From positions 179,769 through 243,768 of the forward strand of contig JAJDTM010000030.1 of assembly GCA_022827185.1 (NCBI GenBank): a stretch of 64,000 bases of DNA, read 5' to 3'. The first letter of the stretch is position 1. The number at the start of each line of letters is the position of its first letter. Both the position numbers and the translations under genes were made by a program. This DNA comes from Candidatus Poribacteria bacterium. Lineage in GTDB: Bacteria; Poribacteria; WGA-4E; WGA-3G. The notes under the pieces were generated by a model. It worked only from the letters and a program-made list of their open reading frames with translations, did no database searches and was not told the DNA's origin. Positions 13,206 through 53,573 of this stretch are shown piece by piece.

Positions 13206-13310
13206 AGAACTTACGCAAATTGGGCAAATATCGGACATTGAGACGCAAAAAGTGATAATTTCCATATTTTCAACCCCCTAAATCCCCCCTATCAGGGGGA
13301 CTTTAAGAGA
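13206..13310. mobile_element. MITE-like repeat, copy 1 (left terminal inverted repeat plus one CCCCCT/AGGGGG hairpin module; right repeat missing)
   Basis: agaacttacgcaaattg … aaccccctaaatcccccctatcagggggactttaagag. Confidence 0.55.
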
Positions 13311-13322
13311 AAGGTAATCGGG

Positions 13323-15557
13323 TTAAAATTCGGCTGTAATTCCGAAATAAGGCAGGATAGGCAGCTGGTTGATATCGTCGCGTGTTTTGTAATCGTCACT
13401 ATACCTGTAATCAAGGAGATTTTTTCGGTTATAAGTATTTAGGAGTTCCAGAAATGCCCCGAGCTTCCATCCGTTGAATTGGAAGATTTTACTGACGCGC
13501 AGGTCCAATCTGTGGTAAGGCGGTAAACGGCCAGAATTCGTTTCAGCATAAATAGGGATATAGATAGGTTTTCCGTTCCTTGGATCGAACTGGATTTTAG
13601 CGTCATCAACAGGGGTATATGGATTCCCTGTGCGATATTGCCATTTCGCGCCAAATTCCAATGTAGGGGTAAGGTTGTAGCTGGCGGCGAGAGTTGCGAC
13701 GTGTGTTTGGTCAAAGGAGTAGAAACGATATGGTTCGCCGATGCGGTCGCGGCGTTTGGATAGGGCATACGCGTAAGAAATCCATCCAAAAAATCGATCG
13801 CCGCGCTGATGCCTGAGAAAAATTTCGGTGCCTTGTGCGTAGCCGACCCCTTGATTGAGGTAAGCGGCTTCTTCATCGCTTGTCGCGATGCCTTCAAGGT
13901 CTTTATAATAGGCTGCCATTTTGATTTCTGTATCTTGTGAAATCTGGCGTTCGAGTTCAAGGATATAATGACTTGCGCGACTTGACTTTAAGGACGGGTT
14001 ACCAATAGTAGGAGAAAGCAGTGCTGGTATTGGTGCCTGGTTGTAAATCCCGTAAGCAAATTGGATTTCAGATTGATTAGGGAGTTCCACGAGCAGACTG
14101 CCACGCGGTTGGATGGAGAGTTCATCGGTGCGATTGAAATAGTCGAAACGGAGTCCAAAGACGAGAGATAGAAATGGCAAGAATGTATACCTGTCTTGTA
14201 AGTAGCCTTCAATCCGTTGTCCACGTACATATTCGTCTAAGTCAATTTTTTCCTCAAATCGGATGTCATAATCAACTTCAGCTTCATCAGGTATGCGGAT
14301 GAAAGTGCCAGTGACCTGTCCCGGTTCAATTCCGAGGATTAATCCGGATTCTAAACGGTGTTTCGGGTTGAGTTCATAAATGATATCTTCGCGAAGGGTG
14401 TAGCTTGGTGCGTCAATATTGAGAGAAAGTTCTGGACCGAGGTTAATGTTGAATAGAAAATCAGAACGGGTTAGCGATAAAAAGGAGGTGAGGCGTTTTG
14501 TCAGGAAAGAACGGAGATGAATTCCTGCGCCCTCAAAACCGCTTTCAAAACTGGTGTTGCCTCTAAAATCTTGGTCTACATTATCACCATCCAATGTTAG
14601 AGCGAACCGATCTCCAGAGGCGAAAAGATTAAAAAAGAGTTGATGTTTTTCGCTAAGATCGTAGCCAGCTTTAAGTTGGTAATCCCAGAAGCGGGGAAAA
14701 GCAGTGATTTCCCCCGTGTCAAGCGGGAAAGAGCCGATGAAAAAGTCAATGTAACTTCTACGTCCGGCGGCGTACCAGAACCCTTTTTCGCCGATTTTTC
14801 CCTGAAGTAATCCCTCCGAGTAGAGGACGTTGATATTGAATTTTCCGCCCAAGTCTGTTGGACTGTTGTCCTTTGACGAGATGTCAATTACGGCTTGGGA
14901 ATCTACGCCGTACTCGGCACCGTAGCCGCCGGCGTAGACATCGATATCGTCAATAATTTCGGAGCTTAAAGACGAGACGATTCCTCCAAAGTGGTAGGGG
15001 TAACCAACAGGTACACGGTCAAAGTAGTAGAGGTTATCCTCATCGGAGCCGCCACGGATATAGAGTGCCCCGCTGAAATCGTTTGCGACACCGATGCCGG
15101 GAATGGCTGGTAGGGCGCGAAGCGCGTCGCCAGCGGTGCCGGGCAGGCGTGTAATTTCTTCCGCTTGGATACTTTTTTTGCTGACAGTCTTAGGGAGGCG
15201 TTTGCCGGTTACTTCCACACCTTCGAGGCGGTACTGTTCTGTTACAACATAGATTTCAGTCTCTTGTTTCTCTCCGGCAATAACAACCACCGAGGTTTGT
15301 TGGATTAGTTCGGTTTCAGGCATCGTAGTAACTAAAGTATAGGTGCCTTCGGGAACGGAACTGAACGCGAATTTTCCATTTTCATCGGTTTTTTGACGTT
15401 CATCGGTTTGAATGATCTTGACCTCTGCGTCTGCCAACGGTTCTTTCGTGTTGTCATTATAGACGGTGCCTTCGATTGTTCCTGTTTGCGAAAAGGCGAC
15501 TGCTGGGACTATAAGAAGCGTCAGCAGGCAAAACAAGCTTTTCATAAAAATCGGCAA
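13323..15557 (-). CDS. TonB-dependent receptor with N-terminal carboxypeptidase-regulatory-like domain (paralog of 11062..13182)
   Basis: Signal peptide and a CarbopepD_reg-like domain (GTIEGTVYNDNTKEPLADAEV). Plug motifs are shared with the neighbour (IRGGSDEDNLYYFDRVPVGYPY). Ends …ITAEF. Confidence 0.75.
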   Translation of the reverse strand: MPIFMKSLFCLLTLLIVPAVAFSQTGTIEGTVYNDNTKEPLADAEVKIIQTDERQKTDENGKFAFSSVPEGTYTLVTTMPETELIQQTSVVVIAGEKQETEIYVVTEQYRLEGVEVTGKRLPKTVSKKSIQAEEITRLPGTAGDALRALPAIPGIGVANDFSGALYIRGGSDEDNLYYFDRVPVGYPYHFGGIVSSLSSEIIDDIDVYAGGYGAEYGVDSQAVIDISSKDNSPTDLGGKFNINVLYSEGLLQGKIGEKGFWYAAGRRSYIDFFIGSFPLDTGEITAFPRFWDYQLKAGYDLSEKHQLFFNLFASGDRFALTLDGDNVDQDFRGNTSFESGFEGAGIHLRSFLTKRLTSFLSLTRSDFLFNINLGPELSLNIDAPSYTLREDIIYELNPKHRLESGLILGIEPGQVTGTFIRIPDEAEVDYDIRFEEKIDLDEYVRGQRIEGYLQDRYTFLPFLSLVFGLRFDYFNRTDELSIQPRGSLLVELPNQSEIQFAYGIYNQAPIPALLSPTIGNPSLKSSRASHYILELERQISQDTEIKMAAYYKDLEGIATSDEEAAYLNQGVGYAQGTEIFLRHQRGDRFFGWISYAYALSKRRDRIGEPYRFYSFDQTHVATLAASYNLTPTLEFGAKWQYRTGNPYTPVDDAKIQFDPRNGKPIYIPIYAETNSGRLPPYHRLDLRVSKIFQFNGWKLGAFLELLNTYNRKNLLDYRYSDDYKTRDDINQLPILPYFGITAEF

Positions 15558-15635
15558 CTCCTGTTCTGGGTATGTTCAAAAATTTATGTGATGTATTTTT
15601 CCTTAAAAAGTATACAATTTTCCTTCCCAGATTGC

Positions 15636-15682
15636 CAAAAAAAAAAAGCACCTCTCAGTTTTTTTCAGAGGTGCTTCTTTTT
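15636..15682. terminator. bidirectional rho-independent terminator (A11 - agcacctct…agaggtgct - T7)
   Basis: A 9-bp GC-containing stem is flanked by an A-run on one side and a T-run on the other. It lies directly downstream of the minus-strand phytanoyl-CoA dioxygenase gene. Confidence 0.6.
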
Positions 15683-15747
15683 ACTGACGGTATCGTTGGA
15701 TCCAGACGTAAGGACGGGCAGCGTTGCTCGTCCGTTATGTTTCTATG

Positions 15748-16596
15748 TTAGCGCGCAACCGCTTCGGAACCGAGGTTTTCCTGAAGCCACGTACGGAGTG
15801 GGACATCTTTTTCACCCGGGGAGGTATATCCCATACCGCCTGTGCTTTTACCCAAAATCTGCTGTCGAATCGGGTTGGACCGTTCCATGACGTGTTCTAC
15901 CGTCATGTTATCGCGTGGTTGGAGCCAACGGTAGCTATAGCCGTAGAAGAGTACCTTGCGTGTGGTGTCGGAGGTGTTCCGTCCCGCGGCGTGCCATAAT
16001 CTCCGATCAAAAAAGACAGCGGTTCCTGGCTTTGCGAACACAGGTGTCGCGTTTTCAGGGTCAGCAGTACTTTCTTCTGGCATTTCTACTTGGTTGAAGA
16101 GTTGGCTGCCCGGTAACACGGAGAAGTTACCACGTCCTGGCACCGAAGTATCGGTTAGGAAATAGGCGACCTTCAGTGATACACGTGGGCGCGGGTTGCC
16201 TTCCAATTCGATGTTAAGTCGTCCGCTATCTTGGTGCCATCCGAGACGTCTCGGTTTATCGCGTTCTTCGGGTGACAGCGGTGGTAGCACAATCAAATGT
16301 GAGTGGTAGAGTTTAATGTTCCACCCCAGGATCCCCCACACTTTCGGGAACGTTGTGTGCCAATCCAGTAACTCTATAAAGCTCTTATCTCTACCAACAA
16401 AGTCGAGGAGATTAAAGTTTGCATCGGGTGGGAGTTCATCTTTTCCCAAGTGTTCTGCCCCGACTCGGTCTACAGCGACAATTAATTTCTCGACCATCTC
16501 TTGTGGGATGGCATCTTCAACGACAAGGAAGCCGTTTTCTTCAAATTGCTGTTTTTCTGTTTCGGTCAAACAGTGTTTTAAACATAGCGGGTTCAT
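15748..16596 (-). CDS. phytanoyl-CoA dioxygenase (PhyH) family Fe(II)/2-oxoglutarate-dependent oxygenase
   Basis: PhyH-family length and motifs. Paralogous to 55377..56216. Confidence 0.7.
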   Translation of the reverse strand: MNPLCLKHCLTETEKQQFEENGFLVVEDAIPQEMVEKLIVAVDRVGAEHLGKDELPPDANFNLLDFVGRDKSFIELLDWHTTFPKVWGILGWNIKLYHSHLIVLPPLSPEERDKPRRLGWHQDSGRLNIELEGNPRPRVSLKVAYFLTDTSVPGRGNFSVLPGSQLFNQVEMPEESTADPENATPVFAKPGTAVFFDRRLWHAAGRNTSDTTRKVLFYGYSYRWLQPRDNMTVEHVMERSNPIRQQILGKSTGGMGYTSPGEKDVPLRTWLQENLGSEAVAR

Positions 16597-16687
16597 CGTT
16601 TTCCCCCATGAAAGATGCTTGAGTTTGCGAAAAGTTTATACTGAATTTGAGTTATCGTCAATGTGAAAAATGTGTTTGCTCTGAAGA

Positions 16688-17743
16688 TCAATGTTTTTCG
16701 GACTCGACCTGTTTTGCTCGTCTGATGGCACGCCATCTCCGCCAAAAATTCACCCCGGCACTAAAAAGAAAGCCGGCACCGATAATTCCGACGATCGCGC
16801 CGCCTAATATCAGTTCAGGGTTTACGATAACACTATAAACTGTTCCTCCGATGAGAACGACTGCAATCAGTGCATCTCTGAGACTGCTTTTTTCTGTGCG
16901 TTTTTGAAGGAGCCTTAGATTTGCGAGTTTCTTCTTTTTAATATAGTCGACGAGTGGTTCTACGGGAACATGGAGCGACTCGGCTTTCTCTGGTGGTGCT
17001 TCTCGGACACAACGAAATCCAATATTTCCGGCACTATAGTCTGGTGGTGCGTGTAAGCGGTTGGCGCATCGGAAATAGCGTTCTGCTGTGCCGTCGCGTA
17101 CTTCCAACCACGATCCACCACGCAAGGCTTTCTGTTTTTCATCAGTAGCCTGTTTAGATTTTAGACGTTTGGATTCGGGATATGGCTGATACCAATCCGC
17201 AGTCCACTCCCAAACATTTCCCGCAGCTTCACCGACTCCATAAGGACTTGCAGTGGCAGGACGGGTGCCGACGGGTGTGAGAGATGCTATCAGGATTTGT
17301 GAGGTCTCTGTGGATTCTGGTTCATCAGGGATAAAAATATTGCCCCAAGGATAGATGCGTCCGTCGGGCCCTCTACAGGCTTTCTCCCATTCTGCCTCCG
17401 TCGGTAGCCGCTTGCCAGCCCATTGTGCGTATGCGTTGCTATCGTGCCAACTGACATGGACGACGGGGAGATTCGCATCCTCGGGCGCGAAGTTCCCATT
17501 TTCCCAGTGTATTGGTGGCGGACGGTTCGTCGCTTGTACGAAGGCTGCATATTCGGCGTTTGTTACGGGATACTGTTCAATAAGATACGCCTCCAAAAAG
17601 CGGACGTGCATCGGTGCTTCGTCGAGTTTGGCATGCTCCGAATCGGCTAAGGCGGTTCCGTAGAAGGCTTCAATATCGGTGCCCATGATAAACGCGCCTT
17701 GCGGAATAAGAACAGCGTTAGTGGATGTTTGTTTTTGATTCAT
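16688..17743 (-). CDS. formylglycine-generating-enzyme (FGE/SUMF1) domain protein with C-terminal transmembrane helices
   Basis: FGE-sulfatase domain motifs (YPVTNAEYAAFV, HVSWHDSNAYAQWAGKRLPTEAEWEKA, RGGSW). The ORF frame extends to 17836, but its first 31 codons are encoded by a tandem 40-bp repeat. The start at MNQKQ (about 17743) is preferred. Confidence 0.7.
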   Translation of the reverse strand: MNQKQTSTNAVLIPQGAFIMGTDIEAFYGTALADSEHAKLDEAPMHVRFLEAYLIEQYPVTNAEYAAFVQATNRPPPIHWENGNFAPEDANLPVVHVSWHDSNAYAQWAGKRLPTEAEWEKACRGPDGRIYPWGNIFIPDEPESTETSQILIASLTPVGTRPATASPYGVGEAAGNVWEWTADWYQPYPESKRLKSKQATDEKQKALRGGSWLEVRDGTAERYFRCANRLHAPPDYSAGNIGFRCVREAPPEKAESLHVPVEPLVDYIKKKKLANLRLLQKRTEKSSLRDALIAVVLIGGTVYSVIVNPELILGGAIVGIIGAGFLFSAGVNFWRRWRAIRRAKQVESEKH

Positions 17744-17746
17744 CCG

Positions 17747-17826
17747 TCTTTTGTATAGCAAGTTTTCGGCTTGCAAGCTACGCCGATCTTTTGTATAGCA
17801 AGTTTTCGGCTTGCAAGCTACGCCGA
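17747..17826. repeat. perfect tandem duplication (2 x 40 bp, cttttgtatagcaagttttcggcttgcaagctacgccga); coordinates +/-1
   Basis: Read from the sequence. Each unit contains the hairpin gcaag-ttttcgg-cttgc. A related copy is at 59113-59154. Confidence 0.7.
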
Positions 17827-18603
17827 AAAGGTCCACGATGCAGTCGCATACTTGGTCTCAACCAAGGTTTCTGCGTGTGCGCGTTCTGCTGATGAGAGTG
17901 TACCTGAATGAAACGCAATTCCGAGGTTAAATGTTTCAGATATTGATTGGATAAGCATATTTCGTGTTATGGAACGTCCCTCTGTATTGATGGCGGTCGA
18001 TCTTTCTCGCAGTATCTTTTGGACCTCAGGGTCTTTTGAGACGCGTGTGAGAATAGTAGCAGGTGGCATATCCAAGGAGATGTAGCCTTGAAACAGGATC
18101 CCGTTTCGATTACGCCTCACAGAGACACCTGCCAGTTTCTTGTCGTCAGCCATCACATCGTGTTCAGCGGGATTCGTCAGACAGATGTTCTGGGCAGCTT
18201 CGGTGGCATCGGCGCACGCGGTGTAGCACTGCGCGGGGATGCCGAGTTTCTGAAATGCTTTGACGAGGGATTGTCCAATGCCATCGTAAGCGTCAGAGAT
18301 ACTTATTTCTCCGGCAGCGCGTGGCAGAATTAATGTATAGGTCAATTCCCATCCATGTACGACAGTCCCACCGCCGGTCATCCGTTTCACGAGTTCAATG
18401 CCGTCCGATCGGCACGCCTCTATGTCAACTTCCGAGTCAATATCTTGAAAATAGCCGAAACTGAAAGCTGGGGACGACCAGTCGTAAAAGCGGAGCGTCG
18501 GGTTTGGCTGTTTCTTCTGTGCAGTGAGAATTGCTTCATCAATTGCCATATTCATCGCCGCACTATTTTTTCCCATATTCAGAAGTCTACCGATGGTTTC
18601 CAT
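17818..18603 (-). CDS. lipoate-protein ligase / octanoyltransferase family (biotin/lipoate A/B protein ligase catalytic domain)
   Basis: BPL/LPL catalytic-domain pattern. The start at METIGRLL is coupled by overlap to the stop of the upstream gene. Confidence 0.6.
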   Translation of the reverse strand: METIGRLLNMGKNSAAMNMAIDEAILTAQKKQPNPTLRFYDWSSPAFSFGYFQDIDSEVDIEACRSDGIELVKRMTGGGTVVHGWELTYTLILPRAAGEISISDAYDGIGQSLVKAFQKLGIPAQCYTACADATEAAQNICLTNPAEHDVMADDKKLAGVSVRRNRNGILFQGYISLDMPPATILTRVSKDPEVQKILRERSTAINTEGRSITRNMLIQSISETFNLGIAFHSGTLSSAERAHAETLVETKYATASWTFSA

Positions 18604-23511: not shown

Positions 23512-23797
23512 ATTGAAACTATTATATTCTAAACCAAATAAATTGTCAAATACATCTTTGCTGAACATCAGAGTGATTTAGTTTTAAGAAATTCGCGAGT
23601 TTCATGCTTTCTGTTACAGATCCGGTGCGGTTAGAATGCAGATCGCAAATGTAAAGCTAAGACAAATTTTGCCGCGTATGGGAAACCAAATTTGGGTGAG
23701 TACACCGCAAAACACGCACCTACCGGCCCTGGGGGTCCAAAATTTGGCGAAAAAACCGAGAACTAAATAGCTCTGTGCTGAACATCTCAATATTGGT

Positions 23798-30679: not shown

Positions 30680-30849
30680 TTTTTAATTTATCGACTCCTG
30701 GGCTGCGCTCCACTATGTTCCGCGCAGGTTTCCTGTTTTAATTCTTACTAAAGTTTGGACATCACTTGTCTCATAGGTGTTGTGTTTTCAAAGGAAGGTC
30801 TATTTTTCTATGAGTTTCACTTATAGGGAACCCTCTGAAAAATACAATA

Positions 30850-30929
30850 AGTTATCGGCACGCACAGGCTAACAGCCTATGCTACAGTAAGTTATCGGAA
30901 TGCACAGGCTAACAGCCTATGCTACTGCA
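30850..30929. repeat. tandem direct repeat (2 x 40 bp, taagttatcgg[c/a]a[c/t]gcacaggctaacagcctatgctac[a/t]g), each with an aggct-aac-agcct hairpin
   Basis: Read from the sequence. Located in the 5' region of the BatA-like gene. Confidence 0.65.
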
Positions 30930-31003
30930 AATTGTCCAAAGTATAGTATATTTAGTACAACAATTGAATGCCTTTACACAGTCGAAATTTTTTGGTTTCA
31001 GTA

Positions 31004-32798: not shown

Positions 32799-32807
32799 GA
32801 TTTTTTG

Positions 32808-32903
32808 TTGGCTATCGGCTATTAGTTGTCGGCTTTCGGTCTTTCCTTCTGATTGCCGTTTGCTGATAGCTGACCGCCTTTCCTCCGAAAACTGATAACT
32901 ATT
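32808..32903. promoter_or_regulatory. cis-element family 2: TTGGCTATCGGCTATT box … AACTGATAACT, abutting the start codon of the 31815..32798 gene
   Basis: Shares its start box and end motif with 36456-36554. Confidence 0.45.
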
Positions 32904-32906
32904 ACA

Positions 32907-33878
32907 CTATAGGGAAGATATTTCTACCAATCGCTTCTCTTGCGCGGAGAGATTTGCCGCGAGTGATATTTCAAGTGTTTTGACGGCATCGCTGTAGGGA
33001 CTTAAAATCGGCGATGCGTCGCCGCTACGGACTGCCTTCACAAAGACTTCATCAATTGTCGGTCCCGGTTCTGTTTTATCTACCCATTCGCCATCTTCCT
33101 GTACCCTAACTCTTGATGGATTCCAATTCAAAAGTTCATCTTCATACAACAAATCCAGCACATTCGCGTTTGACCAGTCGCCCGCATAAGCCCAGGTAGC
33201 AGTCAACGAACCGACAGCACCGCTTGCAAATTGGAGCGAGACGCTATTGGCATCAGGGCAATCTGTCGCTTTAAGAAACCGGTTCGCTTGCATCGCATAA
33301 ACCGACTTCACTTCACCACCCATATAGCGCATCATGTCAACCGTATGTGTCGCTTGTTCGACAAGTTGACCGCCGGATTTGTTCATTTGGCGTAGCCATG
33401 CGTTTGGGTCGCCGTGTCCGGTGCTGCACCAGTACTTACCGACAATCATGTTAACTGTTCTTTCCTTCAAGATTTGCTGTGTGATCCGCGTCGAACCGAG
33501 ATAACGGAGTTGGTAACCGACACATGTTATCAGTCCTGCTTTTGTCACTGCTGCTTCAATTTCACGGGCGATATCAATGTTGATAGCGACAGGCTTCTCA
33601 ACGAGGAAGGGTAAACCGCGTGCAATAACATCGCGTTCTGGTTGCCCATGAACAAAAACGGGGAGGCTGAGATAGACAGCATCCAAGTCATCACGTTCAA
33701 GCATTTCTTGGTGTACCGTGTAAGGGTCCGCATTATGCTTCTCGGCTGCACTTTGGGCGCGTTCAGTTTGAACGTCACACACAGCAACAATTCTTGCTCC
33801 TTCAATGCCTGAGAGTTGGTTCATGTGTCCATTGGCATTACCACCACATCCGATAAATCCGATTTTAACTTCTTTCAT
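32907..33878 (-). CDS. Gfo/Idh/MocA family oxidoreductase
   Basis: IGFIGCGGNANGH Rossmann and the EKP motif. Confidence 0.8.
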   Translation of the reverse strand: MKEVKIGFIGCGGNANGHMNQLSGIEGARIVAVCDVQTERAQSAAEKHNADPYTVHQEMLERDDLDAVYLSLPVFVHGQPERDVIARGLPFLVEKPVAINIDIAREIEAAVTKAGLITCVGYQLRYLGSTRITQQILKERTVNMIVGKYWCSTGHGDPNAWLRQMNKSGGQLVEQATHTVDMMRYMGGEVKSVYAMQANRFLKATDCPDANSVSLQFASGAVGSLTATWAYAGDWSNANVLDLLYEDELLNWNPSRVRVQEDGEWVDKTEPGPTIDEVFVKAVRSGDASPILSPYSDAVKTLEISLAANLSAQEKRLVEISSL

Positions 33879-33907
33879 TTCTACCTCTTTGGTATTTTAT
33901 ACAGACA

Positions 33908-34049
33908 AGACTTACGCAAATTGAATCGGGAAATGGTATATTTTGCTGATTTAACCCCCTAAGTCCCGCTTATCAGGGGGACTTTAAGAGGATTTAACCC
34001 CCTAAATCCCCCTTATCAGGGGGACTTTAAGAGAAAATGCGTAAGTTCT
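33908..34049. mobile_element. MITE-like repeat, copy 2 (terminal inverted repeats agacttacgcaaattg / aatgcgtaagttct; two internal hairpin modules)
   Basis: Read from the sequence; about 142 bp. Confidence 0.6.
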
Positions 34050-34090
34050 AACAGATTTAGACAAAATTGTTGCCGCAAAGTCTGTCCAGT

Positions 34091-35305
34091 TTAACGCGCT
34101 TTGAAATTAACTTGTAGGGCTTTTTCGATGTCTTCGCGCGGGTGGACACCGAACTGTGCTTCAAAATCTCGGTCGAAAGCATCTTCTTCAGCAGGGTCGG
34201 GTTCAAGTGGAAGCTGGATGGGTTGTCGATTTGTGTGGATGGATCGGTGCGCAGCGATTACCATCTCCTGATCGGCTCTACCCATTTCTCCCGTCCAAAG
34301 TGGTTGTGTATCTTCTCGAACGGCGCGAGCGATGCCATCAAGCATCGTTGCCAACGAGATGCCTGTCTCTGAGATATTCGTGTATCGATAAGGATTTACC
34401 CATTCAACCGTCCCCCCTAACGATGCAGGCAATTCTACAAAAATACGGTGCAGTGTCTTGTCTTCGCTATATTCTCGCTGAAATTCGTAGGTTTGTGCTC
34501 TCCCAGCGTTTTCGGTGAGATCCGCGTCAGTGCAGACATTGACCGTTTCACCCCCCGTGGCACCTTGGTTTCCGTTGGTGATAATCGTGCCGCGCTCTCC
34601 ACACGTCTCGAAGCCGACGAGTTTATTTCGTCCGAGGCATCCATTCTTATTGCCTACCATGGCGATCCCGAGTCCGCCGCTATCGAAATCTATGGCGTAA
34701 AACTCAAGGTTTTCGCGATTAAAATCTCGCTTTGCCCGGTCAACGTAAGGGGTAACAGGCATCGTATGTCCGATACTGCTGACTGCTTTCGGGTTGGCAT
34801 CCATACGACACCGTATTGCAGCAAGTCCATGGTAGCCGGTTGTAGAGAAAAGTCGATGGCACTTATGAACGTTTCCGATGACACCTTCCTTGATGAGTTT
34901 ACAGACGAACTGTTCGACAGGAACAAACGGAAAGTTCTCCGATGTCTGGAGTTTCACACCATTTTCGGCAGCGTCGGCGATCATCATATCCATCAAACCG
35001 AGCGTTGGTGCGAGCCCGGTCTCGACGTTGTGCGAGATACCGCGCCGAGAAAGATAACAGGAAACAGTGTGATGCAGTGGTGCAGGCACGACGACATCAC
35101 AGACATCCGGTGAGATTTCGTCAACCATTTTCCTGACATCTGTATAGGCTTTAGTGCCGACTTTCGCTGCGCCCGCCTCTGCCGATTTCGGGTGTGCGTC
35201 ACATACAGCAACGATGTCAAAGGTATCCTTTAATGTCGCTGCTGTTGACAGATGCGCGGCACCGCGTCTGCCGTGACCGATTAACGCATATTTTAGACGT
35301 GACAT
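34091..35305 (-). CDS. Gfo/Idh/MocA family oxidoreductase (long form)
   Basis: YALIGHGRRG Rossmann N-terminus, 404 aa. Confidence 0.7.
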   Translation of the reverse strand: MSRLKYALIGHGRRGAAHLSTAATLKDTFDIVAVCDAHPKSAEAGAAKVGTKAYTDVRKMVDEISPDVCDVVVPAPLHHTVSCYLSRRGISHNVETGLAPTLGLMDMMIADAAENGVKLQTSENFPFVPVEQFVCKLIKEGVIGNVHKCHRLFSTTGYHGLAAIRCRMDANPKAVSSIGHTMPVTPYVDRAKRDFNRENLEFYAIDFDSGGLGIAMVGNKNGCLGRNKLVGFETCGERGTIITNGNQGATGGETVNVCTDADLTENAGRAQTYEFQREYSEDKTLHRIFVELPASLGGTVEWVNPYRYTNISETGISLATMLDGIARAVREDTQPLWTGEMGRADQEMVIAAHRSIHTNRQPIQLPLEPDPAEEDAFDRDFEAQFGVHPREDIEKALQVNFKAR

Positions 35306-35326
35306 TTCGTCCCTCCAACTCTATCA

Positions 35327-35499
35327 AGACTTACGTAAATTGAAGAAAGAAGGCGTATATTTTGAAAAAGGTTGTTATACCTTTAACCCCCTAAATCCCC
35401 CTTATCAGGGGGACTTTGATAACCCCCTAAATCCCCCTTATCAGTAACCCCCTAAATCCCCCTTATCAGGGGGACTTTAAGAAAAAATGCGTAAGTCCT
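35327..35499. mobile_element. MITE-like repeat, copy 3 (terminal inverted repeats agacttacgtaaattg / aatgcgtaagtccta; three internal modules, the middle one truncated)
   Basis: Read from the sequence; about 173 bp. The right repeat abuts the stop codon of the 35502 gene. Confidence 0.6.
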
Positions 35500-35501
35500 A
35501 T

Positions 35502-36449
35502 TTAGTGAACGCACTGATAACCGGTGGCTTCGAGTCTTTCTCGAATTTTGTCTACTTCGGCTGTTGACAGTTGACGGAGTGGTCGGCGCATGGTCATTGA
35601 CGGGAATCTTCCCATCAGCCAGCGTGCGCATTTCATCCGCTGATGGGCATCACTGCTCGGTTCACCGAAGTTGTAGACGATCCGTGCCAATGAATCCACT
35701 TGACTGCGCGCCTTACGTGCGCCAATAAGATCATCGTTGAGGGCGGCATGGACGACATCTACCATCAACTCTGGGACAAAGCCAGCAAATCCGATGAGTG
35801 CGCCATCGCTGCCTTCAAGGAGTGAAGCGAGTAGATACTCGTCATGGCAAGTTAAGATAGGGACATCCGGTGCTGCCGCTCTGAGTTGTTCGTAATCCCA
35901 TCGCCAGCGCGCCATGTCGCGGGTCCCCATTTTGATGCAGATAACTTGCGGGATCTTGACCATTTCCAACATCTCTTCAAGGCTATATCCTGCCTTCGTC
36001 CATGCGGGATATTGATGAACAATAATCGGTATGTCCGCGCCTTCGGCGACATCTTGGAAGTAACCGACTGCGGTTTCGGGTGTTCTGCCGAATCGCAACC
36101 AGTGATGTGCGGGCATTAATAGGATGGCATCCGCGCCGGCTTCCTTTGCGGCGAGTGCGTCGTCAATTGCCGGTAGGCTCCCTTCCGCGCTAACGCCTGA
36201 AACGACTTTAACGCGGTCGCCGACAGCTTCGGCGGTAATCCGCGTAACTTGCTGTCTTTCATGGAGACGAAGGGACATAATTTCGCCGGTGTGTCCATTA
36301 CAGACAACCCCTTTTATTCCAGGGACACCCGCGAGTTCTTGCATGTACTGACGCAATCCGGCTTCGTCAATTGATTCATCTTCGTGAAAGGGGCAGAGCG
36401 TCGCCGGGAATACACCCGCCCATGGATGATGCTGCCAATTCAGTTTCAT
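35502..36449 (-). CDS. dihydrodipicolinate synthase / N-acetylneuraminate lyase family aldolase
   Basis: GVFPATLCPF, VVCNGHTGE, KVVSGV and AGADAILLMP motifs. Confidence 0.75.
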   Translation of the reverse strand: MKLNWQHHPWAGVFPATLCPFHEDESIDEAGLRQYMQELAGVPGIKGVVCNGHTGEIMSLRLHERQQVTRITAEAVGDRVKVVSGVSAEGSLPAIDDALAAKEAGADAILLMPAHHWLRFGRTPETAVGYFQDVAEGADIPIIVHQYPAWTKAGYSLEEMLEMVKIPQVICIKMGTRDMARWRWDYEQLRAAAPDVPILTCHDEYLLASLLEGSDGALIGFAGFVPELMVDVVHAALNDDLIGARKARSQVDSLARIVYNFGEPSSDAHQRMKCARWLMGRFPSMTMRRPLRQLSTAEVDKIRERLEATGYQCVH

Positions 36450-36455
36450 ATTTTA

Positions 36456-36554
36456 TTGGCTATCGGCTATTGGCTATCAGCCGTCAGTAAAGAGAGGTTT
36501 AATTTAATCAATAATTTCTTACCGACAACTGATAACTGATAACTGACAACTATT
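36456..36554. promoter_or_regulatory. cis-element family 2 copy: TTGGCTATCGGCTATTGGCTATCAG … CAACTGATAACTGATAACTGACAACTATT (AGTTATC heptad array)
   Basis: The 21-mer aactgataactgataactgac is identical, in reverse complement, to 48786-48806. Confidence 0.5.
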
Positions 36555-37200: not shown

Positions 37201-38660
37201 GGAATACATAACGTAAGTTTGATAAAAGCATATTGTCGCGCGAATTTTCGAGTTTGCGCTCATAGCACACAAACTGGAAAGTTTGTGCTACGAGGGCCGC
37301 AAGGTGGTCCTTTGGAGAAAATACTCTTATTGAACGCACATAATTTATTATTAAACTGGCGTTATATAATACTTTAGCACTCCCCCGTCAAACCCCGATG
37401 CTTTAGCTTGGGGATGTAGACAGCTAAGAGCGATCAATGAGAAAAGCACGTAAATTCAAACTTCAGGATCAATCTAATACGATCCAACTCGGCAATATGC
37501 TTGACGATATGTGGGGTATCCACGTGTATATTATGTTGCTTGCCCGCAGGTATTATCGCATGTTTGGTAAAAATCTATCAGCATATCGTTTGAAAGCACA
37601 CGTTAGAAAACTCAAAAAGCGGACGAAAGCGCATTGGGCGGATTTGCCGAGTCAAGTTGTGCAAGACGTTGTATTGCGTTATGGCAAATCGCAAGGTGCT
37701 TTTCTTGATAATATCAAAGACCGTAAAACCGGTAAAACGACGCGCAAAGTGGGTAGACCGAAAATTCAACCGCGTCATAAATATAACTCCATGACGTTCA
37801 CACAAGCGGGGTATGAACTTGAAGACAATCGTATTAAAATCAACTGTATAGATACATGGTTCTCTTTCCATAAACACCGAGAAATCAAAGGAACTATTAA
37901 GACGATCACCATCAAGCGTGATAAATGCGGCGACTATTGGCTATGCTTTTCGTGCGAGGATGTTGACGATTCCGAACCCAAACCCAAGACGGGTAAGAGC
38001 GCAGGATTTGATTACGGAAACAAAACATTCCTCACCAGTAGCGAAAGCGATAAGATAGAATCACCGCAGTTTTTCAAACAATCACTAAAAACGTTGCGAA
38101 CCTTAAGCAAGGCATTAAGTCGGAAAGTCAAAGGTTCAGGTAATTGGTATCGTGCGTGTCGTGCTTTAGCAAGGCTACACAGAAAAGTCGCCCGACAAAG
38201 AGCAGATTGGCAATGGAAACTTGCCACCGAACTTTGCACGGAATACGACACCCTAATTTTTGAGACGCTGAACATTGACGGCATGAAAAGGCTTTGGGGT
38301 CGTAAAGTTTCTGACCATGCCTTCTACCAGTTTCTACAGATTTTAGAGCAGAAGTGTGCGAAGCACGGTAAGGCACTTGAAAAGATTGATCGCTGGACAC
38401 CTACAACGAAACCTTGCAGTGATTGTGGATACCATAATAAAGAACTTTCTCTTTCAGATAGAGAGTGGACGTGTCCCGAATGTGGTTCACACCACGACAG
38501 AGACATCAACGCTGCTATCAATATCAAACAGGCAGGCTTGGCTGCCTAAAGTGGAGTAGACGTAAGACGGTGGACTCTTTGAGAAAACCGCTGACTACGA
38601 GGAAGCACAAGCCCCAACCTTTAGGTTGTGGGTACCTATGACCAGTATGTTCAACGATAC
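37201..38660 (+). mobile_element. IS200/IS605-family element carrying only tnpB (IS1341-like); ends approximate
   Basis: Left-end subterminal hairpin cacaaact/agtttgtg at about 37265-37288. Right-end hairpin caacct-tt-aggttg at about 38618-38636. No tnpA. Confidence 0.6.
37437..38549 (+). CDS. tnpB: TnpB (OrfB) RNA-guided endonuclease-like transposon protein
   Basis: Split RuvC-like motifs and a C-terminal zinc finger CSDCGYHNKE…CPECGSHHDRDINAAINI. Confidence 0.85.
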   Translation: MRKARKFKLQDQSNTIQLGNMLDDMWGIHVYIMLLARRYYRMFGKNLSAYRLKAHVRKLKKRTKAHWADLPSQVVQDVVLRYGKSQGAFLDNIKDRKTGKTTRKVGRPKIQPRHKYNSMTFTQAGYELEDNRIKINCIDTWFSFHKHREIKGTIKTITIKRDKCGDYWLCFSCEDVDDSEPKPKTGKSAGFDYGNKTFLTSSESDKIESPQFFKQSLKTLRTLSKALSRKVKGSGNWYRACRALARLHRKVARQRADWQWKLATELCTEYDTLIFETLNIDGMKRLWGRKVSDHAFYQFLQILEQKCAKHGKALEKIDRWTPTTKPCSDCGYHNKELSLSDREWTCPECGSHHDRDINAAINIKQAGLAA

Positions 38661-41712: not shown

Positions 41713-41713
41713 T

Positions 41714-46168: not shown

Positions 46169-46177
46169 CAAAGGAGG

Positions 46178-47092: not shown

Positions 47093-47149
47093 ATATGAAC
47101 GGAGAGACGGGTCATTGGGCTTGTCTATCCGTTTGATTTATGATATTGG

Positions 47150-47200
47150 CTGTTGGGGCGGGTTGTATCCCGCCCACTGCCTTTTTTTATTGCCTACTAC
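47150..47200 (+). terminator. rho-independent terminator candidate after korB (imperfect GC stem, then T7)
   Basis: ggctgttggggcggg ttgtat cccgcccactgcc ttttttt. Confidence 0.45.
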
Positions 47201-47215
47201 AGGGGCGTTCACACC

Positions 47216-47917: not shown

Positions 47918-47956
47918 CGATTGGGTTCACTCCGTACGGGTGCTGTAAAAGCATCA

Positions 47957-48048
47957 AGACTTATGCAAATTTAGCATGTGGATCAAGGTTTTTGATTTTT
48001 AACCCCCTAAATCCCCCTTATCAGGGGGACTTTAACTGCGTAAGTCCT
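47957..48048. mobile_element. MITE-like repeat, copy 4 (terminal inverted repeats agacttatgcaaatt / ctgcgtaagtcct; one internal module), between ccmA and ccmB
   Basis: Read from the sequence; about 92 bp. Confidence 0.6.
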
Positions 48049-48089
48049 AAGAATGAGCAACAAGCATTCCGGTAAGAATTGAGACACAC

Positions 48090-48782
48090 ATGAAGGCACT
48101 CCGTCAGATTGGTGCGTTGATTCGCAAGGATCTTGGACTTCAATTCCGTTCAAAAGAGACGCTGGTATTGATTTTCGTTTTCAGCGTGTTAGTCGTCCTG
48201 ATTTTTGCTTTTGCGTTTGGTCCGGTTTTCCCAGAAAAGGAGGCGCGCGGCAAATTAGCCGCCAGTGTGCTCTGGACAGCGTTCGTTTTTGCAGGAATTA
48301 TTACCTTGAATCGTTCATTTGCAGTGGAACGCTCCCACGGTGCTTTGCACGGTATTCGGCTTACGGGTATTGATGTGAGCAATCTCTATCTTTCCAAAGT
48401 TGTCAGCAACGTCATTTTTCTATTTTTATTGGAAATTGTCATTACGCCTATCACGCTTCAATTCTTAGATTTGCTTGATGTGGTGACGATGGGCATATTA
48501 CTGAAGCTGCTCGGCGTGCTGAGTATCGGTACACTTGGGTTTTGTGCCGTTGGTGTACTGTTAGCGGGCATGTCTACAAATACAAGCGGTGGCGAAAGCC
48601 TACTTTCCGTCATTCTACTTCCGCTTGTCATTCCAATCATTATGGGCGGTGCGAAATGCACCGTTGCGCTTCTGGTGACGGGTGGATTGGGCGACGGATT
48701 TTGGTTGAATCTGCTTGTTGGATATAGTTTAGTCTTTTTAGCAGCCGCGTATCTACTCGCGGATTTTGTCATTGAGGAATAG
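48090..48782 (+). CDS. ccmB: heme exporter permease CcmB
   Basis: CcmB-typical N-terminus (LIRKDLGLQFRSKETLVLIFVFSV), six transmembrane helices. Confidence 0.75.
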   Translation: MKALRQIGALIRKDLGLQFRSKETLVLIFVFSVLVVLIFAFAFGPVFPEKEARGKLAASVLWTAFVFAGIITLNRSFAVERSHGALHGIRLTGIDVSNLYLSKVVSNVIFLFLLEIVITPITLQFLDLLDVVTMGILLKLLGVLSIGTLGFCAVGVLLAGMSTNTSGGESLLSVILLPLVIPIIMGGAKCTVALLVTGGLGDGFWLNLLVGYSLVFLAAAYLLADFVIEE

Positions 48783-48785
48783 CGA

Positions 48786-48806
48786 GTCAGTTATCAGTTA
48801 TCAGTT
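48786..48806 (+). promoter_or_regulatory. AGTTATC heptad array gtcagttatcagttatcagtt, 95 bp upstream of eno
   Basis: Identical 21-mer to the array at 36526-36554 (opposite strand, same orientation relative to the downstream gene). Confidence 0.5.
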
Positions 48807-48861
48807 TGCCTCGCAGTGAGAGTTAAGAGCAGCTTGATTGTGTTAGGCGCAGTGAAATTGA

Positions 48862-50202
<1,341 letters not shown>

Positions 50203-50268
50203 GTACTTGCATCCATATAGGAACGATTTTTGTGCTGTTCCAGAATGTTCTTTTTAGAGGTACACCTT

Positions 50269-50556
50269 ATGCGTATTTTTCGTCCGATTCTATTTCTGAT
50301 TGCCCTTGCTTTACTTGTGGTCAGCGTCAGGCAATTCATGAACGGTTATGATGACTGGCAACGGGCGCAGTTTGCTGAGGAAGCCTATCGTGGCGAGATC
50401 CGGGCGTTGGAATCCGAGCGTGCCCGACTTAAGAAACGCGTCGAAATGCTGAAAAACGATAAATTAACAAAGGAACGACTCGCCAGAAAACGGCTCGGTT
50501 ATATTCGGTCTGGTGAACTCAAGTTTAAAGTGGTTAAGCCTGATGCTGTTAAGTGA
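50269..50556 (+). CDS. ftsB: septum formation initiator FtsB/DivIC-like
   Basis: N-terminal transmembrane helix and a coiled coil (ESERARLKKRVEMLKND). Conserved position downstream of eno. Confidence 0.55.
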   Translation: MRIFRPILFLIALALLVVSVRQFMNGYDDWQRAQFAEEAYRGEIRALESERARLKKRVEMLKNDKLTKERLARKRLGYIRSGELKFKVVKPDAVK

Positions 50557-50701
50557 TTTGTAACAGTGCTTAAATTTTTCTTGCTTTTTTTCTGCGCGCT
50601 GCTATAATAGGTCAGAATTTCGCATAACAGGCAACAACACCTGTTATATCCAATGATACCGACCTATTACTTAACGTTTAAAGTAAGGGAGGAAAAATAG
50701 A

Positions 50702-51148
50702 ATGTTCGGAAGGAAGAAAACACCTATGATTCCAACAATTAGTTCAGGGGTTGCGGGGCCGCTCGGCGTGTTGCATCTTCCACGATTCTGGTCGAAAGTG
50801 CTAATGGATGCCAAAGGTGTCCTCCATGAAGATTACCCGGCATGCGGGGCAGGCTTCGATCAGATGGTGTTAGATGGACTCGGACTGGATAAGGATGCTA
50901 CGTTGGCGTATATCAGCGATAATTCGCCGACCTATCCACAGTTTGAAGCGTGGGTTTCGGAAAACGGGAGTTTTGACCAAGCGGCAGTTGATGAACTGAA
51001 TGCTGCAATTACAGGCTACAATCACGACGATGATACCCGCGGCGGCATTCTCGGTGCGAGCGGTGTTGAAGACGACGGCTCTATTTTAGATGCTGTGAAT
51101 CTCAACAACCTTGATGACTGGTATGAATTTCACGCCAATTTAGGTTAA
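50702..51148 (+). CDS. hypothetical protein (possible DUF5069-like)
   Basis: Strong RBS agggagg. The HLPRFWSK segment. A promoter TTGCTT-16-TATAAT at 50571-50598, with a structured roughly 100-nt leader. Confidence 0.45.
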   Translation: MFGRKKTPMIPTISSGVAGPLGVLHLPRFWSKVLMDAKGVLHEDYPACGAGFDQMVLDGLGLDKDATLAYISDNSPTYPQFEAWVSENGSFDQAAVDELNAAITGYNHDDDTRGGILGASGVEDDGSILDAVNLNNLDDWYEFHANLG

Positions 51149-51160
51149 ACCTTTAGATAT

Positions 51161-51212
51161 TTCATGTAGGCGGGTTTCTTTAACCGCGCCTACATGAAAC
51201 ACACCTCTTTTC
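51161..51212 (+). terminator. hairpin (12-bp stem ttcatgtaggcg / cgcctacatgaa) followed by a T-rich tract
   Basis: Read from the sequence, downstream of the 50702 gene. Confidence 0.45.
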
Positions 51213-51345
51213 CTTCCGACCTAACCCAGTTTGCTATTATTATCCAAAAATTTCTTAATTCGGTTTATAGAAACAGAAGAAATTAACGCGAGTGCAACTT
51301 AAACATGTAATGCATCAAGCAGCATCCTAATGAGAGGGTACCTTC

Positions 51346-52392
51346 ATGAAGTTACAACTCACTGTTATCTGTGTCTTGTGCCTTTTGCTTCTGTCATCTT
51401 CCGATGCAACCGTTCCTTCCCAATACGCGAAGCAATCCACCGAATGGTTCCAGAGCGAGGAGGGTCGCCGCATTGCTGACAACGTCCTCACATGGCAGAC
51501 ACCGCACGGCAGTTGGCCCAAGAATCGAGACACAGCATCCGAACCGTTTGATGGCAACGTTGACGATCTGCACGGAACGTTTGACAACAGTGCCACCATT
51601 GGCGAACTACGGTTTCTTGCGCGTGCGTTTCGTGCGACAAACGTGCCACGCTACCGAGATGCATTTCTCAAAGGTCTGTCTCATATTCTTGAGGCGCAAT
51701 ACCCGAATGGTGGGTGGCCTCAGTATTACCCGCTAAGCAAAGGCTACCATCGCCACATCACGTTCAATGACAACGCCATGGTGCGAATTCTCGAACTTCT
51801 CCGAGATGTTTCTGAATCTTCAGACTATGGGTTCTTGGAAACGGCGTACCGCACTCAGGCTAAAGCTGCTGTAACCAAGGGCATCGACTGCATCCTGCGC
51901 ACGCAGATCAAACAGGATGGTAAACTTACTGCCTGGTGTGCGCAGCATGACGAAAAAACGCTCGCGCCTGCGTGGGCGCGTTCATACGAGCCGCCATCGA
52001 TCTCAGGTGCTGAAAGCGTCGGTGTCGTGCGTTTCCTAATGTCAGTCGAAGAACCCACGCCGGAGATCATCGCCGCTGTTGAGGGGGCCGCCGAGTGGTT
52101 CAGGAGCGTCGCAATCCACGGCATCCGTTTAGAGAAGTTCACTGATGCAGACGGACAGACGGATAAACGGGTCGTGACAGATCCTGACGCGGGACCGATC
52201 TGGGGGCGTTTCTACGAGATCGGCAGCAACCGCCCAATCTTTCTCGACCGCGATTCAGTGGTCCGCTACGCGTTTTCCGAGCTCGGGCAGGAACGCCGCA
52301 ACGGCTACGCCTACTACGGTAGCTGGGCGAATAGGTTACTCGCAGATGCGTACCCACAGTGGCGAGAAAAACACAAGCTCCCGAAGGAATAA
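51346..52392 (+). CDS. pectate lyase, PL10-like (PelA family), secreted
   Basis: Signal peptide. TFDNSATIGELRFLA and NGGWPQYYP segments are typical of PL10. Confidence 0.6.
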   Translation: MKLQLTVICVLCLLLLSSSDATVPSQYAKQSTEWFQSEEGRRIADNVLTWQTPHGSWPKNRDTASEPFDGNVDDLHGTFDNSATIGELRFLARAFRATNVPRYRDAFLKGLSHILEAQYPNGGWPQYYPLSKGYHRHITFNDNAMVRILELLRDVSESSDYGFLETAYRTQAKAAVTKGIDCILRTQIKQDGKLTAWCAQHDEKTLAPAWARSYEPPSISGAESVGVVRFLMSVEEPTPEIIAAVEGAAEWFRSVAIHGIRLEKFTDADGQTDKRVVTDPDAGPIWGRFYEIGSNRPIFLDRDSVVRYAFSELGQERRNGYAYYGSWANRLLADAYPQWREKHKLPKE

Positions 52393-52406
52393 CCGACTCA
52401 CGTGAA

Positions 52407-53465
52407 CTACTTGTCCGCTTCTGTGGTGAGTTCGATTGCGCTACCTGTTGCAGAAGACTCAAGTCCTGCAAGCAAAATCTCAGTGACATGCCGCGCTGTG
52501 TAGACATTTGAGAGTGGCGGTTGTGTGCCTTCACGGATGTGTTCGGCGAAATGCGCGTGCATTCCGCTCGGTGCAGCGTCTGAACAGTCAATCGCTTTCA
52601 CATCAACGGGCGCGTGTTCGCGCGTGTAGGAGGTGGGTGTCAATTGACTGAGTGCTGCGCCATCTTTACCGGGCATTGTGAATTTGCCCGCTGTGCCGTG
52701 TACACTCCCTTCACCCGTGCGCGCGGGATCACACCAACTCGTCTCCGCGGTGACAATTCCACCGGATTTCATCTCAAGTACAAGCGTTGCGACATCCTCT
52801 AATTCGGTCGGTTTATCGAAAGTAGAAACAAAGCCGGTCACGCGTTTGAAGGTGCCGAGCATTGCGACGAGACTCGAAACGGCGTAAACCCCCATATCGA
52901 ACAGGGCACCGACGCTTGCCTGTTTCGCATCGAAGAACCACAAATCGTCGCCTGTTTCACCGAAGATATCGCGGATCTCTGCGTAATAGATTTCTGGTCC
53001 GCCGTGGCTGCTCCGCATTCGCGCCCCAGAAACACGTCCGATTGCCTCTTCAGCAATTAATTGGCGAATTTTGTAGACAGCGGCGCCGAAATGTGGGAGA
53101 CACATCACCGTCTTACCGCTGGCTTCAGCGGCTTCGACGAATTGATTCGCTTCATCCATCTCGCCGCAGAGCGGTTTCTGCATGAGCACATGCTTACCGG
53201 CTTCCAACGCTTTGACCCCCCACGAGACGTGCAAGGGGTGTGGCGTACCGACAAGGATCGCATCAAGCGTCTCATCAGCGATAATTGCGTCATAGTCTTG
53301 TGTCCAACGAGGTATATCGAACTCTTGACATTGATGTTTGAGACGGTGTTCGCGTCTACCGCCGATAACACTGACTTCAAAATCGGAGCCCTGTGCGAGG
53401 TCAGGGAGATGCATCCGGCAGACGATACCGCCTGCACCGATAACACCAAGCTTTAGTTTTTGCAT
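52407..53465 (-). CDS. Gfo/Idh/MocA family oxidoreductase (possible glycoside 3-dehydrogenase-type)
   Basis: LGVIGAGGIVCRMH Rossmann and the QKP motif. Paired with the DUF1080 gene. Confidence 0.75.
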   Translation of the reverse strand: MQKLKLGVIGAGGIVCRMHLPDLAQGSDFEVSVIGGRREHRLKHQCQEFDIPRWTQDYDAIIADETLDAILVGTPHPLHVSWGVKALEAGKHVLMQKPLCGEMDEANQFVEAAEASGKTVMCLPHFGAAVYKIRQLIAEEAIGRVSGARMRSSHGGPEIYYAEIRDIFGETGDDLWFFDAKQASVGALFDMGVYAVSSLVAMLGTFKRVTGFVSTFDKPTELEDVATLVLEMKSGGIVTAETSWCDPARTGEGSVHGTAGKFTMPGKDGAALSQLTPTSYTREHAPVDVKAIDCSDAAPSGMHAHFAEHIREGTQPPLSNVYTARHVTEILLAGLESSATGSAIELTTEADK

Positions 53466-53485
53466 AACATTTCCTTACTACAGTT

Positions 53486-53573
53486 AGGACTTACGCGGCC
53501 TCCTTTGCAAGCGGGATTTCAAACTCCGCCTGCAGCAATACGTAGATTATCATAGAAAAATGCATAAGTCCTG
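53486..53573. mobile_element. MITE-like repeat, copy 5 (terminal inverted repeats taggacttacgcg / tgcataagtcctg; different internal core, no CCCCCT hairpin)
   Basis: Shares the 12-13 bp terminal inverted repeats with copies 1-4. Confidence 0.5.

Follow-up and report, generated by a model that had tools for sequence, protein, structure and literature searches.

Several families of short repeats are known from the intergenic DNA of bacteria. BOX elements of Streptococcus pneumoniae (boxA-boxB(n)-boxC) are short and intergenic, with conserved ends and a variable count of a foldable module of ~40 nt. Correia elements (Neisseria miniature insertion sequences, NEMIS) of Neisseria and the repeat unit of pneumococcus (RUP) are abundant intergenic miniature inverted-repeat transposable elements (MITEs) with a TA duplication and 26-nt repeats, and promoter and RNase III effects have been documented for Correia elements. 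Small dispersed repeats (SDRs) of Nostoc and relatives, reportedly described by Elhai et al. in 2008, are said to be 21-27 nt long. Poribacteria are uncultivated sponge symbionts, and a literature search found no published description of MITEs in them. Here we describe five short hairpin-bearing elements in a window of 64,000 nucleotides (the whole stretch of DNA that was analysed) from a Candidatus Poribacteria bacterium (assembly GCA_022827185.1, contig JAJDTM010000030.1, positions 179,769 to 243,768 of the forward strand). All five were found at the places given in an initial annotation made from the sequence alone, and all are intergenic. We regard them, with a probability of about 0.85, as members of a family of MITEs (family A) that is spread across Candidatus Poribacteria, is transposed in trans by a 5-bp cut and carries a 32-nt hairpin module as a cassette. 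The initial annotation had called them non-autonomous transposable elements, and fixed 5-bp duplications, filled and empty sites and the absence of conservation at orthologous positions bear this out.

ISPlag1 of Planktothrix agardhii is an insertion sequence (IS) of 1306 bp with one 337-aa open reading frame (ORF) and belongs to the IS701 group (Christiansen et al., 2008; PMC2464740). Its inverted repeats are 29 nt long (CAGGACTTACGCAAGCACGCTATATATAG), and deletion derivatives of 197-812 bp occur in Planktothrix (PMC2464740). We found ISPlag1 by a full-text literature search for the family-A end core, which gave one relevant paper. The commonest family-A left end is identical to the ISPlag1 end in its outer 14 nt, and so is the right end (14/14; CAGGACTTACGCAA ... 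TGCGTAAGTCCTG). Planktothrix plasmids carry a full ISPlag1 copy that is annotated as an ISPlag1-family transposase gene. The copy at AP017993.1 37213-38516 has an ACAGT duplication, with the same geometry as in the Poribacteria elements.

The MITE family itself is real and active in sponge-associated Poribacteria; its ends, its 5-bp duplication, its filled and empty sites between species and strains and the identity of its ends with those of ISPlag1 are direct observations. Family A was surveyed by pairing 12-nt end cores that lie at most 450 nt apart, both in the window and in ~35 Poribacteria genomes, whose loci were chosen by an exact 31-mer of the module, and this gave 69 elements. The ends are 13 nt long (YAGGACTTACGCA ... 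TGCGTAAGTCCTR), with C or T as the outermost base on the left and A or G on the right. Elements are 87-176 nt long in the window and 87-424 nt in the other loci, and they are non-coding and too short for a transposase; we describe the family element as spanning 87 to ~220 nt. A perfect 5-bp direct duplication lies just outside the outermost base in 42 of the 69, and 9 more agree at 4/5 positions; shuffled pairings gave 1.06 on average and never more than 5. The signal is confined to one offset (1) and one length (5), with ~0 at all others, and the duplicated 5-mers are 80% A+T. Defined ends and target-site duplications, which the initial annotation expected of transposable elements genome-wide, are thus present at one fixed offset. 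Interiors vary, with several left-arm subtypes, zero to three modules, a second hairpin type, a GTAGCATAGGCTGTTAGCCTGTG-type core and nested elements.

Comparison of filled and empty sites, also suggested by the initial annotation, found them both between species and between strains. In one species pair the empty site reads GGGTATAATTGGACA (L085) and the filled site reads GTATAATT, the element, then TAATTGAACA (L057); TAATT is single when the site is empty and doubled when it is filled. In a second pair (L016 empty, L089 filled) the duplication is TAGAA. Between strains, L137 has a family-A element at a target that is empty in the window (Table 1).

Searches of the window agree with this picture. 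The 34-nt module, with at most 3 mismatches, has six matches, all on the plus strand (starts at 13274, 33955, 33998, 35387, 35448, and 48003), vs none in 100 shuffles. The end motif TGCGTAAGTCCTA, with at most 2 mismatches, has nine matches vs 1.16 expected, a number reached by no shuffle, and seven of the nine are element ends. Inverted ends of the YAGGACTTACGCA / TGCGTAAGTCCTR type had been proposed for the copies, and all five are of that end type, except that copy 1 has lost its right end. Module counts of 1, 2, 3, and 1 hold for copies 1, 2, and 4, while copy 3 has two full modules and one truncated module. The predicted stem of ~11 bp with one bulge and a 4-nt loop is what the minimum-energy fold gives (11 pairs, one bulge, 4-nt loop). 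The core of copy 5 does differ from the module as had been noted, although it is not unique to that copy, being a second recurring hairpin with the consensus CTGCAGGCGGGGTTTGAAACCCCGCCTGCAG. Pfam agrees with the identities given earlier to the neighbour genes of all copies. Copy 1 is 84-91% identical over ~105 nt to elements in L003, L021, L023, L100, and others. Look-ups of exact proteins gave no database match for the 404-aa Gfo protein and the DUF1080 protein, and look-ups of related loci around copies 1 and 5 gave only short contigs from the window's own sample.

Table 1. Family-A copies and other repeat features, with positions in the window unless a locus is named.
Feature	Position	Strand	Ends, modules and content	Flanking sequence	Neighbouring genes (Pfam for copies 1-5)
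Copy 1	13205..~13319	+	Family A, 122-nt subtype; left end C-AGAACTTACGCA; one module (32-nt unit 13272-13303); right end decayed (AAGAGAAAGGTAATCGGG), only left end kept		TonB-dependent receptor genes on both sides
Copy 2	33906..34050	+	Complete, C-AAGACTTACGCA ... TGCGTAAGTTCT-A; two modules (33953-33984, 33996-34027)	ACAGA, perfect 5 bp (33901-33905 / 34051-34055)	Two Gfo/Idh/MocA genes
Copy 3	35325..35500	+	Complete; two full modules (35385-35416, 35446-35477) and one truncated, 24 nt (35421-35444)	TCTAT / TTTAG, 3/5 positions agree	DHDPS-family aldolase; Gfo/Idh/MocA
Copy 4	47955..48049	+	Complete; one module (48001-32)	AGCAT / AGAAT, 4/5 positions agree	ABC ATPase (ccmA); CcmB (ccmB)
Copy 5	53485..53573	+	Ends T-AGGACTTACGCG ... 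TGCATAAGTCCT-G; core is second hairpin type (53505-53535)	1/5 positions agree, no recognisable duplication	3-keto-disaccharide hydrolase (DUF1080); Gfo/Idh/MocA
Empty target site AAAGT	58377..58381	.	Family-A element here in L137	AAAGT on both sides in L137	
Nested GGTATGAATGCCTTATGGGCATTCNCCG insert	L131 2854-2925; L132 (window 48012-48013); also L103, L071, L073, L108				
TnpB-only IS200/IS605-type element	37209-38642 (ORF 37437..38549)	+	Left end TAACGTAAGTTTGATAAAAGC		Between ccmE and ccmF
72-nt insert	23637-23708		In hairpin loop, CCGGTGCGGTTAGAA^ACACGCACCTACCGG		
234-nt element	30748-30981		Two 40-nt tandem units (30843-30922) with GCACAGGCTAACAGCCTATGCTAC hairpin	Bounded by CTAAAGTTTGGACA / TGTCCAAAGTATAG	
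TCTTTTGTATAGCAAGTTTTCGGCTTGCAAGCTACGCCGA units	17747-17826; 59099-59138		Two identical 40-nt tandem units and a 65% copy		
Heptamer-type tandem repeats	32800-32840; 36448-36551; 48786-48806		GGCTATC/GGCTATT/TGTCGGC and AACTGAT x3		

The hairpin module is not confined to family A. Comparison of 45 distinct flanking contexts gives AACCCCCTAAATCCCCCTTATCAGGGGGACTT (32 nt) as its conserved block. Its left limit is sharp (from 2.0 to 0.34 bits at position -3), with a conserved AA that lies outside the search pattern, and its right limit is a gradual loss over TAAG. The exact 31-mer of the module occurs, among the matches listed, in more than 111 eight-kb blocks of a species-representative genome collection; the assemblies among these matches include 35 Candidatus Poribacteria, with at least 16 blocks on a single 6.67-Mb chromosome. 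The 32-nt unit is the core of family A, with its 5-bp duplication, and of two other families. Family B has 28-nt ends (TATGGTAGATTTTAGAATTACTTAGACA) and is TA-flanked, with one filled/empty pair (L092 and L025); family C has 16-17-nt ends (ACGYGAGTTTGAWAAA) and a duplication of 6-7 bp, seen by eye in two copies only. Two further groupings, "family D" (no detectable inverted repeat) and "family E" (an inverted repeat in a single copy only), were rejected as bounded families because they lack consistent inverted repeats, so only A, B, and C are counted. A suspected likeness of family-C ends to the inner end of the Tn3 repeat could not be substantiated and was discarded. The unit also occurs solo or in tandem arrays. 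In plasmids of many cyanobacteria the same, near-identical arms enclose different loops (CCCCCTAAATCCCCCTTA-loop-AGGGGGACTTT), with Kovacikia, Leptolyngbya, Oscillatoria, Nostoc, Allocoleopsis, Synechocystis, and Pseudanabaena among the genera. The initial annotation implied that the module is private to the YAGGACTTACGCA-ended family, which does not hold, since it is shared by at least three inverted-repeat-bounded families (family A included) and by other phyla; the 32-nt C5/G5 hairpin is a cassette and not a family-specific part.

Occurrences of the 31-mer outside Poribacteria were also seen. Three metagenome-assembled genomes (MAGs; L052, L053, and L054; 51.6-53.7% G+C), labelled Ignavibacteria, Desulfomonilales, and Deltaproteobacteria, have it within their own local repeats, and an IMG/VR viral contig (L127) has it between large ORFs. 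These occurrences may reflect transfer, misbinning or independent spread. A search of a phage collection gave no match.

Module number changes within inserted elements. At the insertion site of copy 3 there is one module in L128, two in L129 and two plus one truncated in the window, in strains that are ~98-99% identical over the aligned region; the two modules of copy 2 are retained in L128, L129, and L130. An orthologous insertion in L059 and L108 has one and two modules, respectively. Tandem units elsewhere are 41, 43, 49, and 97 nt long, and their boundaries vary, as slippage or unequal exchange would be expected to produce and insertion of a fixed unit would not. We infer that replication slippage or unequal recombination between repeats causes the change in number. 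No filled/empty pair was found for the module alone, all candidates being tandem-copy artefacts. A solo unit in L059 is orthologous to a copy in L108 that has a left end, so solo units can be relics of elements.

Modules also carry inserts of their own. The copy-4 module is intact in the window, but in L131 and L132 a nested hairpin of 70 nt interrupts it at CCCCCTAAA^...^CCCCTTATC. This small hairpin (GGTATGAATGCCTTATGGGCATTCNCCG), preceded by one to three GAATCA copies, was always joined to the module at that same point (Table 1). It is present or absent between strains whose flanks are 97-99% identical, and it is either a site-specific insertion or a gene conversion between module copies.

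The initial annotation suggested looking for an autonomous partner with matching terminal repeats. ISPlag1 has such ends, although no partner transposase was found in the 1.1 Mb of DNA examined (the window, ~1 Mb from Poribacteria, and loci from cyanobacteria, viruses and other phyla). A tblastn search of this DNA with the ISPlag1 transposase gave no relative, and no partner was found between end pairs 688-3618 nt apart, at orphan ends or as long repeats common to loci. The family-A end fits the IS701 consensus ---YACT-Y--YR in part, with GACT instead of YACT. A protein-database search with the ISPlag1 transposase gave 7258 relatives, in a listing without taxonomy. As no relative of the transposase was found in the Poribacteria DNA examined, the partner is deduced from the ends, which point to an ISPlag1-related DDE transposase of the IS701 group as the most likely enzyme.

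Several observations weigh against reading the five copies as MITEs mobilized in this way. The window has a perfect duplication only at copy 2; copies 3-5 agree at 3, 4, and 1 of 5 positions, and copy 1 is one-ended. The 5-bp agreement with ISPlag1 comes from one copy, two other ISPlag1 copies having no duplication. Duplications of the IS701 family are 4 bp as a rule, whereas those of family A are 5 bp, and the related ISH3 and IS1634 families have duplications of 4-6 bp (PMC2266710). Past the outer 14 nt the Poribacteria ends (…AATTGAG) diverge from the 29-nt ISPlag1 repeat. Neither an IS701-type transposase nor any other autonomous element with family-A ends was found in the 1.1 Mb examined, and none of the best 120 of the 7258 ISPlag1 relatives lies on a contig of megabase size. 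Finally, the identity of the 32-nt unit across ~35 species and other phyla is not explained by plain MITE decay.

In a different reading the 32-nt hairpin unit is itself mobile or self-propagating. It would be a very small dispersed repeat that can enter MITEs, other hairpins and intergenic DNA and that has spread across phyla, with family-A ends as just one vehicle of its amplification. The sharp limits of the unit over 45 contexts, its place as the core of families with different ends and duplications, its solo occurrence, its presence in three non-Poribacteria MAGs and a viral contig, and the recurrence of its arms with different loops in many cyanobacterial plasmids all favour such mobility, and small hairpin units are gained or lost between strains that are 97-99% identical (the 70-nt insert in copy 4 and the 72-nt insert of Table 1). 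However, the 32-nt unit alone has no filled/empty pair, the changes seen in its number are tandem, with variable boundaries, and explicable by slippage, and solo copies can be relics of decayed elements, as in L059. Recombination or template switching at the hairpin could also fuse parts of different MITE families, and such chimeras would distribute it alike. Part of the apparent conservation is inflated because loci were chosen by an exact 31-mer; 71 of 154 module copies are identical over 36 nt and the variants are pair-breaking single substitutions, in a sample biased by exact-match selection in which a covariation test is powerless. On balance we consider a mobile unit of this kind unlikely. 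A broader and still more doubtful proposal is that AACCCCCTAAATCCCCCTTATCAGGGGGACTT and its companions (the GGTATGAATGCCTTATGGGCATTC hairpin and the 72-nt loop insert) are self-propagating units below 40-70 nt that use an undescribed mechanism, with hairpin loops as landing sites, and that move or are copied from one hairpin, MITE family or genome to another and even across phyla (Poribacteria, Cyanobacteria, Desulfomonilales, and a phage). If this were true, MITEs would draw on a common pool of cassettes for their make-up and would help to disperse it.

Two further readings fare worse. The elements could be conserved cis-regulatory or RNA devices (promoter, terminator, RNA-stability hairpin or protein-binding site) at carbohydrate and transport operons rather than insertions. 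All five copies end 19-40 nt before a start codon, whole elements fold much better than shuffled sequence (z-scores -2.3 to -5.2), and none of ~140 module clusters lies inside an ORF of at least 110 aa. Closeness to start codons follows, however, from insertion into spacers of ~45 nt, as in L112, and orthologous spacers do not keep the elements. Six syntenic metagenome loci have orthologues of the DHDPS-Gfo-Gfo cluster, with genes 75-85% identical to those of the window, and the module is absent from all six. The copy-2 site holds no element in L112, where the spacer is 45 nt, nor in L115, L116, and L125, where the short spacers are unrelated; in L114 a family-A element whose core is the second hairpin lies in almost the same position. 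The copy-3 sites of L112 and L114 are occupied by other repeats (in L112, three tandem 40-nt units from another repeat family). Without conservation at orthologous spacers the elements are not conserved syntenic regulatory sequence, a possibility the initial annotation had raised, and a regulatory origin is contradicted. Supply of promoters or terminators, also proposed there, finds no support: copies 2 and 3 have no sigma-70-like or intrinsic-terminator-like site, and after the module hairpin comes ACTTTAAG or, on the opposite strand, ATTTAGGGGG, in neither case the T run that completes an intrinsic terminator behind a G+C-rich hairpin. Module clusters show no strand bias between co-directional genes (31 sense, 41 antisense), and 24 lie between convergent and 8 between divergent genes. 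Rfam gave no match in the window at the gathering score and only noise in 33800-35600 at a permissive E of up to 10. Between strains copy 2 differs by 2-3 substitutions, all in module stems and all breaking pairs. A regulatory device is therefore very improbable, and the host effect of the elements is most likely none or incidental, as for tolerated, largely neutral insertions. Least probable of all is that the units are repetitive extragenic palindromes (REP), or the REPIN hairpins formed by them, that a REP-associated tyrosine transposase (RAYT; tyrosine HUH, IS200/IS605 type) moves via single-stranded hairpins. The units are extragenic, palindromic and often tandem, an IS605-family TnpB element lies in the window (Table 1), and other repeats have GTAG-headed hairpins. 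HUH enzymes of the IS200/IS605 type make no target duplication, whereas a fixed 5-bp duplication with 13-nt inverted repeats marks DDE transposition; the 32-nt unit has no GTAG head, and the ends match those of the DDE element ISPlag1. For family A this origin is contradicted by the 5-bp duplication and the ISPlag1-type ends.

If the five copies are MITEs, as we prefer, they would have spread as DNA by a cut-or-copy route, in which A+T-rich targets are cut with a 5-bp stagger. The enzyme would act in trans, probably as a DDE transposase of the ISPlag1-related kind named above. Inside an inserted element the module would multiply or contract in place through duplication or deletion of units with differing boundaries, and other small hairpin units would land in it or convert it. 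Elements would persist where they are tolerated, in short spacers whose flanking genes are co-directional or convergent, immediately before ribosome-binding sites, and they are presumably transcribed through within operon RNA.

Near-identical strains are on record (ERZ25068633, a contig of 6.25 Mb, ERZ21862620, and SRR16351679), and the comparison covers 22.6-58.6 kb of the window (36 kb), over which strains are 96-99% identical. All indels of at least 20 nt are repeat elements except one, and the 72-nt insert, the 234-nt element, a 100-nt TA-flanked element and the TnpB element are present or absent among strains. The exception is the spacer 47093-47210 upstream of ccmA, which in L137 is replaced by unrelated sequence of similar length with flanks 97-99% identical. 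The TnpB gene has an identical copy in L135, for which Pfam gives OrfB_IS605 and Cas12f1-like_TNB, and the element is missing from L136. The left end of the element is similar to both family-C ends (ACGTGAGTTTGATAAATA) and to the way a 2.6-kb insert in L125 begins. The 72-nt insert sits exactly in a hairpin loop and is not in the close strains L135 and L136; L111 1451-1545 matches the region 23622-23720 at 90% identity, and L047 has a similar insert in the same loop type. The 234-nt element is in L135 and not in L136, and its GCACAGGCTAACAGCCTATGCTAC hairpin is the core of some family-A elements. Three TCTTTTGTATAGCAAGTTTTCGGCTTGCAAGCTACGCCGA-related units fill the copy-3 site in L112; the TCTTTTGTATAGCAAGTTTTCGGCTTGCAAGCTACGCCGA repeat has a GTAG-headed, REP-like hairpin on its reverse strand. 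The 100-nt TA-flanked element (TATAGTGGATT...GGATTTTACTATA) occurs only in L136 (~13575-13674 in window orientation, as reverse complement; window ~36503), and its family is also nested in a family-A element of L077. The heptamer-type runs recall short tandem heptamer repeats of cyanobacteria; AACTGAT x3 is also found inverted 12 kb away, and similar runs flank elements in L003 and L033. The adjacent paralogous genes 6338..7285 and 7329..8282 (both minus) have stretches that are 75-85% identical (6380-6908 vs 7374-7905), and the pair looks like an ordinary tandem gene duplication.

Repeat elements of this kind are numerous and active, and they are the main source of strain length differences in the 36 kb compared. 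They therefore matter for assembly and binning, for strain typing and for the reading of operons; a 95-nt element separates ccmA from ccmB, for example. That the ends recur in ISPlag1 and the hairpin in cyanobacteria suggests that mobile DNA has passed between cyanobacteria and Poribacteria. For the old question of how very short repeats spread, the cassette is a tractable case.

Compared with the systems described at the outset, family A is like ISPlag1 in the outer 14 nt at both ends, in the 5-bp duplication of one ISPlag1 copy and in the occurrence of short deletion derivatives. ISPlag1 differs in that the inner 15 nt of its 29-nt repeats are unrelated, it has no C5/G5 hairpin and its host is a cyanobacterium. 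The module resembles SDRs in being a unit of a few tens of nucleotides; some SDRs are reportedly hairpins and lie inside MITEs and in otherwise conserved sequence, and the module arms are widespread in cyanobacteria. The 32-nt unit is, however, longer than the 21-27 nt reported for SDRs, and no precise insertion of a single unit was seen here; the unit is sharp over its 45 contexts but has no clean filled/empty pair, whereas such pairs exist for other nested hairpins. Like Correia elements and RUP, family A consists of abundant intergenic MITEs within operons that would form long hairpins when transcribed, but Correia elements and RUP have a TA duplication and 26-nt repeats as opposed to 5 bp and 13 nt. 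BOX elements share with family A the conserved ends and the internal foldable module of variable number. They have no sequence relation to family A and another host, and family A is distinguished from them by inverted-repeat ends, a 5-bp duplication and a module that is shared with other families.

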